From Escherichia coli (GTDB taxonomy: Bacteria; Pseudomonadota; Gammaproteobacteria; Enterobacterales; Enterobacteriaceae): a stretch of 64,000 bases of DNA. Both the position numbers and the translations under genes were made by a program. Under the pieces are notes generated by a model, which did not search any database, was not told the DNA's origin, and worked only from the letters and a program-made list of their open reading frames with translations. Positions within the stretch are counted from its first letter, which is position 1; every line of letters starts with the position of its first letter. The stretch lies in the NCBI RefSeq assembly GCF_003334305.1, contig NZ_QOWS01000015.1; one strand, written 5' to 3'. Below, one piece after another: positions 43,213 through 45,126 of the stretch.

Positions 43213-43401
43213 ATGGGCAAAGCAACGTATACCGTGACCGTCACCAATAACAGCAATGGCGTTTCTGTCGATTATGAAACAGAGACGCCGATGACTTTGC
43301 TGGTGCCAGAAGTGGCGGCTGAAGTGATAAAAGATTTGGTGAATACCGTGCGTTCTTATCCGGTGCGCCGTAAAACCCCGTCCTTCAGGGCGGGGATATA
43401 A
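43213..43401 (+). CDS. yoaG: Small protein YoaG; 3' end appears to run into the IS left end
   Basis: 62-aa ORF starting 4 bp after yeaR; last ~15 codons overlap the predicted IS left-end hairpin. Confidence 0.75.
   Translation: MGKATYTVTVTNNSNGVSVDYETETPMTLLVPEVAAEVIKDLVNTVRSYPVRRKTPSFRAGI
43374..43397 (+). repeat. Predicted IS left-end subterminal imperfect hairpin
   Basis: CCCCGTCCTTCAGGGCGGGG; core 18-mer CGTCCTTCAGGGCGGGGA matches the right-end copy 16/18 in direct orientation. Confidence 0.45.
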
Positions 43402-43416
43402 GGCGCGGTTTTCCAC

Positions 43417-43848
43417 CTAACCAGGTGTTTGCTGTTGTTCAATGTATTGGCGGATGACGGATATTGGCGCACCTCCGCAGCTACTGGCAAAATAGCCAGG
43501 ACTCCACAAAACGCCTTTGTAGTAATACCTGACTGCAATATCTGGTCGATCTCGTCGCAGTAACCTACCCGATACGCCTTTGAGGCTGTTTACCAGACTG
43601 GATATCGCCAGTTTGGGAGGATAGTTAATTAACAAATGGACGTGATCTGGTTCGCCATCCATTTCAACAAGTTCAGCTTCAAAATCAGCACATACATTTG
43701 AAAAGTAAGTGCGTAGTTTTTCTGTCGCGTCATGGTCAAAAATCTGGAGTCGGTATCTGGTGACAAAGACCAGGTGAACATGCATCAGGAAAACACAATG
43801 CCTTCCACGCCGGATATCGGTTTCTTTTTTCACAGACCAAAGTATCAT
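43417..43848 (-). CDS. tnpA: IS200/IS605-family Y1 HUH transposase TnpA
   Basis: 143-aa ORF with HUH motif (PDHVHLLI) and catalytic-Tyr helix (GGAPISVIRQYIEQQ). Confidence 0.85.
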   Translation of the reverse strand: MILWSVKKETDIRRGRHCVFLMHVHLVFVTRYRLQIFDHDATEKLRTYFSNVCADFEAELVEMDGEPDHVHLLINYPPKLAISSLVNSLKGVSGRLLRRDRPDIAVRYYYKGVLWSPGYFASSCGGAPISVIRQYIEQQQTPG

Positions 43849-43855
43849 TTGACCT

Positions 43856-45064
43856 GTGAAACGATTACAGGCATTTAAATTCCAGTTAAGACCAGGTGGT
43901 CAACAGGAGTGTGAAATGAGGCGCTTCGCAGGCGCATGTCGTTTCGTTTTCAATCGTGCTCTGGCACGTCAGAATGAGAATCATGAGGCCGGTAATAAAT
44001 ACATCCCTTACGGGAAAATGGCTTCCTGGCTGGTTGAGTGGAAAAACGCCACTGAAACGCAATGGCTTAAAGATTCGCCCTCACAGCCATTGCAACAGTC
44101 ACTGAAAGACCTTGAGCGGGCTTACAAAAACTTCTTCCGGAAGCGGGCTGCTTTTCCCCGATTCAAAAAGCGGGGACAGAATGATGCATTCCGCTACCCG
44201 CAGGGCGTAAAGCTCGATCAGGAAAACAGCCGTATTTTTCTGCCGAAACTGGGCTGGATGCGCTACCGGAATAGCCGTCAGGTCACGGGTGTTGTGAAAA
44301 ATGTCACGGTCAGCCAGTCCTGCGGTAAGTGGTACATCAGTATTCAGACAGAAAGTGAAGTATCCACTCCGGTTCACCCTTCAGCATCAATGGTCGGGCT
44401 GGATGCTGGCGTGGCTAAACTCGCCACGCTGTCAGATGGCACAGTCTTTGAGCCTGTAAACAGTTTTCAGAAAAACCAGAAGACGCTGGCGAGACTTCAG
44501 CGACAGTTAAGCCGCAAGGTCAAATTCAGCAACAACTGGCAGAAGCAGAAACGCAAAATACAGCGACTGCATTCCCGTATCGCAAATATCCGCAGGGACT
44601 ACCTTCACAAAGTCACAACGACCGTCAGCAAAAACCACGCAATGATAGTCATTGAGGATTTGAAGGTCAGCAACATGTCAAAGTCAGCAGCGGGTACGGT
44701 CAGCCAGCCGGGGCGCAATGTCCGGGCAAAATCAGGTTTAAACCGTTCGATACTGGATCAGGGCTGGTATGAAATGCGCCGCCAGCTTGAGTACAAGCAG
44801 CTCTGGAGTGGCGGTCAGGTGCTTGCTGCTCCGCCAGCGTACACAAGCCAGCGTTGCGCGTGCTGTGGTCATACAGCGAAAGAAAATCGCCTGTCACAAA
44901 GTCAATTCAGATGCCAGGTATGTGGATATACAGCGAACGCCGATGTAAACGGCGCTCGTAACATTTTAGCGGCGGGGCACGCCGTTCTTGCCTGTGGAGA
45001 GATGGTGCAGTCAGGCCGCTCGTTGAAGCAGGAACCCACCGAAATGATTCAGGCGACAGCCTGA
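43856..45064 (+). CDS. tnpB: TnpB (IS605 OrfB) RuvC-like RNA-guided endonuclease
   Basis: 402-aa ORF; N-terminal FKFQLRP...CRFVFNRAL, RuvC-like GLDAG / IEDLK / [10 protein letters not shown], zinc finger CACCGH...CQVCGY. Confidence 0.85.
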
Positions 45065-45126
45065 ACGTAGCAGGGATCCTCGTCATTCAGGGCGTGGAGG
45101 ATGTCAAGACACGGAAAACGAACATG
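44900..45126 (+). ncRNA. Predicted omega-RNA (right-end RNA) scaffold plus guide for TnpB
   Basis: Inferred by analogy to characterised TnpB systems, where the RNA overlaps the tnpB 3' end and the right end; not directly detected. Confidence 0.3.
45077..45100 (+). repeat. Predicted IS right-end subterminal imperfect hairpin
   Basis: CCTCGTCATTCAGGGCGTGGAGG; direct-repeat partner of the left-end hairpin. Confidence 0.45.

Follow-up and report, generated by a model that had tools for sequence, protein, structure and literature searches.

The insertion sequences (IS) IS608 of Helicobacter pylori and ISDra2 of Deinococcus radiodurans are the mechanistic models of the IS200/IS605 family. Both possess a Y1 HUH transposase (TnpA) and subterminal hairpins, both lack inverted repeats and a target duplication, and both insert 3' of a short target, which is TTAC for IS608 and TTGAT for ISDra2. 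In the ISGst2-type IS605 elements of Geobacillus stearothermophilus (TnpB2), to which a donor-joint homing model applies, the transposon-adjacent motif (TAM) is TTTAT (bioRxiv 10.1101/2023.03.14.532601). Elements of the IS605 group with TnpB occur in >90 % of E. coli genomes with about two copies each, and TTAT and TCAA are the commonest left and right cleavage motifs of TnpB-containing elements of this group (PMC9956272). One named element, 'insertion sequence:IS609', is annotated in E. coli K-12 MG1655 at 1503161-1504908 (NC_000913.3) between ydcL and ydcO, with insQ as its tnpB and yncK as a pseudogene of tnpA. Here we describe a window of 64,000 nucleotides from the E. coli contig NZ_QOWS01000015.1 (assembly GCF_003334305.1), in which positions 43360-45107 are a structurally complete copy of IS609, a member of the IS200/IS605 family of enterobacteria. 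We take E. coli IS609 to be distinct from ISHp609 of Helicobacter.

IS609 shares with IS608 and ISDra2 all of the features named above, its own target being TTAT, and the TCAA end with IS608. However, it resembles IS605 and IS606 in the divergent orientation of tnpA and tnpB, whereas these genes are co-oriented in IS608 and ISDra2, and the proteins of these two are only distantly similar to those of IS609 (E 1e-17 to 1e-55). The TAM of ISGst2 is nearly identical to TTAT, but host and sequence are unrelated, and activity was demonstrated for ISGst while IS609 is read here from its sequence. A literature search found no paper with a biochemical characterisation of IS609 TnpA, TnpB or omega RNA, and no paper on the yoaG insertion site. 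The element itself is already catalogued and the site is a common polymorphic one, so that the finding as such is already known.

The IS609 copy in yoaG

In an alignment to K-12 MG1655 (NC_000913 1876000-1884000) the window contains 1748 extra bp. Membership in IS609 was judged by an end-to-end DNA identity above ~95 % to a reference with the same gene content, the annotated MG1655 copy serving as reference. The window element has the same gene content and is IS609, because both elements are 1748 bp long and align colinearly and without gaps at 98.2 % identity (32 differences). They have in common the divergent tnpA/tnpB layout, the TTAT target and the GGATGTCAA end. They differ in locus (ydcL/ydcO there, yoaG here), at nine amino acids of TnpB, at two positions of the right-end hairpin and in tnpA, which is intact in the window but interrupted by an internal stop and without its terminator in MG1655. 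The name is also in public use: 'IS200/IS605-like element IS609 family transposase' is carried by a 143-aa member of the 90 %-identity cluster of the window TnpA, and the NCBI Prokaryotic Genome Annotation Pipeline (PGAP) gives it to one related copy. The identical TnpA protein is found on at least 1000 contigs.

A first-pass annotation of the window had placed an IS200/IS605-family element with tnpA and tnpB at 43357-45110, between yoaG and yeaQ. Strong Pfam and NCBIfam domain matches bear out the family, but each of the ends lay 3 nt outside the element; the comparison with MG1655 which it had suggested gave the exact ends and, through the copy annotated there, the name IS609. The insertion point is not between the two genes but within the 3' end of yoaG, after codon 49. 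As the first-pass annotation had stated, yoaG and yeaQ are adjacent in K-12 with no IS separating them, and the segment is absent at that locus in MG1655; K-12 does carry IS609, at ydcL/ydcO.

The uninterrupted K-12 site reads ...CGTTCTTAT|GACACGGAAAAC..., its right half beginning with GACACGG, and is split cleanly after TTAT, i.e. the element lies 3' of a specific short target as in other members of the family. A target-site duplication is absent, zero bases being doubled at either junction in the alignment to K-12 MG1655. The insertion alters the end of YoaG. The K-12 protein has 60 aa with the C-terminus ...VRSY-DTENEHDVCGW, of which the last 11 residues (DTENEHDVCGW) are swapped in the window for 13 residues from the left end of the IS, PVRRKTPSFRAGI. 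In strain A7 this chimeric protein bears the annotation 'DUF1869 domain-containing protein' (WP_000513743.1), and public data have it in identical form on at least 1000 contigs. On the other side, tnpB is oriented toward yeaQ, 183 bp upstream of the yeaQ start. The coordinates of all features are listed in Table 1.

Table 1 Features of the IS609 copy and of its immediate flanks (window coordinates)
Feature	Position	Strand	Remarks
Chimeric yoaG open reading frame (ORF), 62 aa	43213..43401	+	49 native residues and 13 encoded by the IS left end
TTAT target, expected TAM	43356..43359	+	Flank directly 5' of the left end, outside the element
Complete IS609 element	43360..45107	+	Window plus strand is the top strand, read from left to right end
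Left end	43360..43416	+	Subterminal imperfect hairpin 43376-43397, CCCCGTCC-TTCA-GGGCGGGG, one G-T pair
tnpA, Y1 HUH single-strand DNA transposase, 143 aa	43417..43848	-	ORF intact, TAG stop
tnpB (insQ-type), RNA-guided RuvC nuclease, 402 aa	43856..45064	+	GTG start
Predicted omega (right-end) RNA scaffold	44961..45107	+	Overlaps tnpB 3' end and right end
Right end	45078..45107	+	Hairpin 45078-45098 and terminal GGATGTCAA; TCAA cleavage motif 45104-45107
Predicted guide template, ~16 nt	45108..45123	+	Flank GACACGGAAAACGAAC, displaced last codons of yoaG

In E. coli strain A7 from orangutan faeces (NZ_CP028767.1) the 2.1-kb region is present with 100 % identity. The exact TnpB variant of the window is recorded on just two contigs.

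The ends were compared with six other IS609 copies at distinct E. coli sites, namely ydcL, yfeD, a tetR-family gene (two strains), yidH and plasmid pRM13516, with the yoaG copy of E. coli W and with diverged plasmid relatives from E. albertii, Salmonella, Klebsiella and Raoultella. TTAT stands 5' of the left end in 12 of the 13 independent insertions, most IS609 sites having TTTAT, and all 13 terminate in GGATGTCAA. A separate 3'-end alignment of ten homologues, which adds Xylella and IncY plasmid sequences, shows GGATGTCAA in nine and GGATGCCAA in one, and similarity stops there in all ten. The first 62 nt are conserved across all homologues, including derivatives without tnpA and miniature ones. 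Subterminal hairpins are present at both ends on the same strand. The left end folds as single-stranded DNA with -16.2 kcal/mol (z -2.6 against shuffles), and the right-end hairpin is a direct repeat of 43376-43396 at the left end with 86 % identity, the strongest repeat within the element. The right-end hairpin is called because of this homology and that to other copies, not because of its folding energy. A repeat search of the element found no inverted pair joining the termini, i.e. no terminal inverted repeats.

At the right-end hairpin the window reads CCTCGTCA...GGGCGTGG, K-12 and several other copies CCACGTCC...GGGCGTGG. The latter form is better paired. The CCTCGTCA variant is common to the yoaG copies and the yfeD copy of O157:H7 and has therefore occupied at least two sites.

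Shortened relatives of the element exist as well. IS609-like derivatives of 1322-1336 bp on plasmids of Salmonella, E. albertii, E. coli, Raoultella and Klebsiella consist of the 62-nt left end fused to tnpB without tnpA, and a miniature element of 352 bp contains the left end and the omega-RNA/right-end region alone. Five of six such derivatives kept the TTAT flank, the exception being the copy on Salmonella pESI, and all six kept the GGATGTCAA end. A solitary IS609-like 3' end of ~140 nt (78 % identity), covering the omega-RNA/right-end region, lies just downstream of repA on the E. coli IncY plasmid NZ_CP085058 (1148-1286), where no tnpB is annotated beside it.

The two proteins and the predicted omega RNA

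Both ORFs proved to be as first described, divergent, with 143 and 402 aa and with 7 nt between the start codons. TnpA matches Pfam Y1_Tnp (1.4e-40, model positions 1-121 of 121) and NCBIfam transpos_IS200 (142.8 bits, cutoff 55, 6e-42); the TnpA structures of IS608 and ISDra2 match it at 1e-17 to 1e-18. Alignment to the solved Y1 transposases 2F4F and 2EC2 assigns the HUH motif to H69-V-H71 and the catalytic tyrosine to Y135 in VIRQYIEQQ, the same residues that the first reading had pointed out, and identifies the protein as a Y1 HUH TnpA of the IS200/IS605 family. A 14-nt inverted repeat at 43828-43861 (TTTCACAGACCAAA / TTTGACCTGTGAAA) flanks the divergent start codons of tnpA and tnpB and could act on both genes as an operator or an RNA hairpin.

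In the other copies tnpA is damaged in various ways. The K-12 gene has an internal stop besides the lost terminator, two further copies are frameshifted, the copies of O157, ESY001 and W read through the left end, with CAG in place of the TAG of the window, and in plasmid pRM13516 tnpA is wholly absent. Each of the six other full-length copies examined has a tnpA pseudogene or a tnpA without stop codon, and the window copy is the sole full-length one among the copies examined in which both genes are intact. Because tnpA and tnpB are both intact here, unlike in K-12, a carrier strain would be a reasonable natural system for the interplay of native E. coli TnpA and TnpB.

TnpB matches NCBIfam guided_TnpB (384.8 bits, cutoff 100, 5e-115) as well as Pfam HTH_OrfB_IS605, OrfB_IS605 and Cas12f1-like_TNB, and aligns over its full length to ISDra2 TnpB (8H1J/8BF8, E 2e-55). 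D183, E267 and D363 fall on D191, E278 and D361 of ISDra2, so that all catalytic residues are matched, D361 being the third of them, and C334, C337, C353 and C356 fall on the zinc cysteines. Experiments showed that catalysis requires D191 and E278 (PMC8612924). The protein has the RuvC D-E-D triad and the CxxC...CxxC zinc ribbon of TnpB, and the segments GLDAG, IEDL and NADVN as well as the cysteine motif, which had been noticed before, are all present. The exchange C336Y in K-12 was considered as a zinc-finger lesion and rejected, since the ISDra2 alignment puts the ligands at the four cysteines named above. By analogy with its characterised relatives, the window TnpB would carry out RNA-guided, TAM-dependent DNA cleavage. 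Six of the seven other IS609 copies examined have an intact tnpB, and dN/dS across ten copies is ~0.19; tnpB is therefore under purifying selection while tnpA decays.

An omega RNA spanning ~44961-45107 and ~16 nt of flank (GACACGGAAAACGAAC) is predicted and fits what is described for ISDra2, where the last ~16 nt of the omega RNA are derived from the flank (PMC8612924). The consensus fold of the last ~180 nt, built from ten homologues of 75-100 % identity and in part coding, has 47 pairs, of which 8 show compensatory changes. Its closing stem joins ACAUUU (near 44961) with GGAUGU directly before the terminal CAA.

The mechanism proposed for the yoaG copy is drawn from IS608, ISDra2 and ISGst (PMC8612924, bioRxiv 10.1101/2023.03.14.532601, PMC9956272). 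While the top strand, i.e. the window plus strand, lies exposed on the lagging-strand template, TnpA would excise it in the form of a single-stranded circle, and the circle would be expected to have the junction ...GGATGTCAA|CCGGTGCGCC... The donor would be resealed scarlessly by TnpA and the circle inserted 3' of another TTAT. The top strand corresponds to the minus strand of K-12 at 1.88 Mb, which we take from the replichore geometry to be the lagging-strand template, the orientation favoured by the IS200/IS605 family. The plus strand also has a weakly positive GC skew; all of this serves as a consistency check only. TnpB would load an omega RNA of ~150 nt from the tnpB 3' end and the right end, extended by ~16 nt of flank, and might then cut the resealed donor joint or any TTAT-flanked empty yoaG allele; recombination with the copy on the sister chromosome would reinstall the element. 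The donor-joint homing model of ISGst2 appears directly applicable to IS609 in this respect. The K-12-type empty allele has exactly GACACGGAAAACGAAC after TTAT, so that the homing logic would hold at yoaG.

Age of the insertion and alternative explanations

Queries spanning the junctions found both of them in exactly 1100 of 5426 complete E. coli genomes, about one in five, and the empty, uninterrupted site in 4318. DNA related to IS609 is present somewhere in nearly all complete genomes, with a near-full-length copy (>=80 % coverage) in 4307. That all of these 4307 carry the yoaG insertion was rejected on the junction queries, the rest having IS609 elsewhere. The NCBI annotation pipeline already annotates the element in the ~1100 complete carrier genomes. 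Between the window copy and the one that E. coli W has at yoaG, 19 of 1748 positions differ, compared with 15 of ~2450 in the flanks. Because this divergence resembles that of the flanks, it suggests a single old insertion, which probably diverged in place and was inherited by ~20 % of E. coli lineages.

As a whole, the explanation preferred here, i.e. a complete IS609 inserted 3' of TTAT in the last codons of yoaG, a mechanism by analogy with the described relatives and a single old insertion, is held with high confidence. Nothing contradicts the identification as IS609; several observations weigh against an active copy or limit the predicted omega RNA. The predicted omega RNA region overlaps coding sequence in part, which inflates its conservation. 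The Rfam scan of 43000-45600 (E<=1) yielded no family besides RAGATH-18 at 44991-45034, whose score of 29.5 bits is below the threshold of 44.9 bits (E 0.0074). PMC11061315 describes the RAGATH-18 motif as part of TnpB guide RNAs, and the match was used as positional support, not as proof. A scan for sigma-70 promoters and terminators found fewer promoter-like sites than in shuffled sequence and is uninformative on transcription of tnpA, tnpB or the RNA. The right-end stem of the window has T-T and A-G mismatches in comparison to the K-12, tetR-site, yidH-site and plasmid copies, and the right-end fold alone, as DNA, is no better than shuffled sequence (z -0.85). Finally, the K-12 IS609 copy never moved in mutation-accumulation lines (PMC5009759), though the tnpA of K-12 is broken.

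The last two points, together with others, are what an immobile fossil would lead one to expect, i.e. a copy of IS609 that is fixed in its lineage and passively inherited and of which only tnpB and the RNA might still function. This explanation has a substantial chance of being correct, though one somewhat short of even. It fits the mismatched right-end hairpin, but imperfect hairpins are normal in the IS200/IS605 family. It also agrees with the decayed or read-through tnpA in most IS609 copies examined, in which tnpB is intact, yet the window tnpA is a full ORF of 143 aa with the HUH motif and the tyrosine. Vertical inheritance would account for identical junctions in 1100 genomes, and a genome median of ~3 matching places suggests low activity; the K-12 copy is inactive. 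However, the right-end variant of the window is also found beside yfeD in O157:H7 and was thus moved or copied at least once.

At the other extreme, the yoaG copy could be an active homing unit at the level of the population, whose omega RNA is programmed by GACACGGAAAACGAAC against the intact yoaG allele of ~80 % of E. coli. This is doubtful. If true, empty alleles arriving from other strains by conjugation or transduction would be destroyed or converted by TnpB, and this would act at yoaG as a chromosomal gene drive or a recombination barrier, which would also explain the intact tnpB alongside the decay of tnpA in sister copies.

A third possibility reverses the history of the site: the element would be ancestral at yoaG, and the 80 % empty alleles, that of K-12 included, would have arisen by seamless excision through TnpA. 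Excision in the family is scarless, so that an excised site has the appearance of a naive one (bioRxiv 10.1101/2023.03.14.532601), and the K-12 allele is exactly TTAT and the right flank. We nevertheless consider this improbable. It needs many independent losses or one early loss, and homing by TnpB should oppose loss. The copies at yoaG differ by ~1 %, like their flanks, which fits insertion in one sub-lineage, and the named carriers (E. coli W, O111:H2, enterotoxigenic E. coli) and non-carriers (K-12, O157:H7, ST131, UTI89) look clade-like.

Co-option of the tnpB/omega-RNA unit by the host, e.g. for control of yoaG or yeaQ, can be set aside as very improbable, for although tnpB faces the nearby yeaQ start and is under purifying selection while tnpA often decays, such selection is equally expected under selfish homing, the RuvC triad is intact, unlike in known nuclease-dead exapted relatives, and the pattern of intact tnpB and decayed tnpA is also found at unrelated loci.

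For the single old insertion of a complete IS609, the significance beyond a correct annotation is slight, and mobile-element finders report IS609 routinely. Of practical use are the exact ends, 43360 and 45107, and the fact that yoaG is not intact in carriers but truncated with a foreign tail.

Other departures from K-12 in the window

Except for three segments, K-12 1922573-1861692 and the window are colinear at ~99 % identity. IS609 is one of the three, and the two others contradict the first-pass view that it is the sole accessory DNA of an otherwise core-genome window.

The last 1143 bases (62858-64000) diverge from the K-12 stretch. At 62857/62858 yeaC joins pncA/ansA, and the segment encodes PncA (63008-63667, minus strand) and the C-terminus of the asparaginase AnsA. 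At the corresponding position K-12 has the gene cluster ydjL...ydjH, and this sugar-acid cluster seems to be absent from the window strain.

The other departure is a segment of 224 bp (39423-39646) that K-12 lacks at its position 1883151, between dmlA and yeaV. In the window a yeaV ORF of 536 aa (37940-39550, minus strand) has its 5' end and its upstream region from this segment. Since yeaV is annotated with 481 aa in K-12 and the segment is missing there, this appears to be a K-12 deletion at the 5' end of yeaV.

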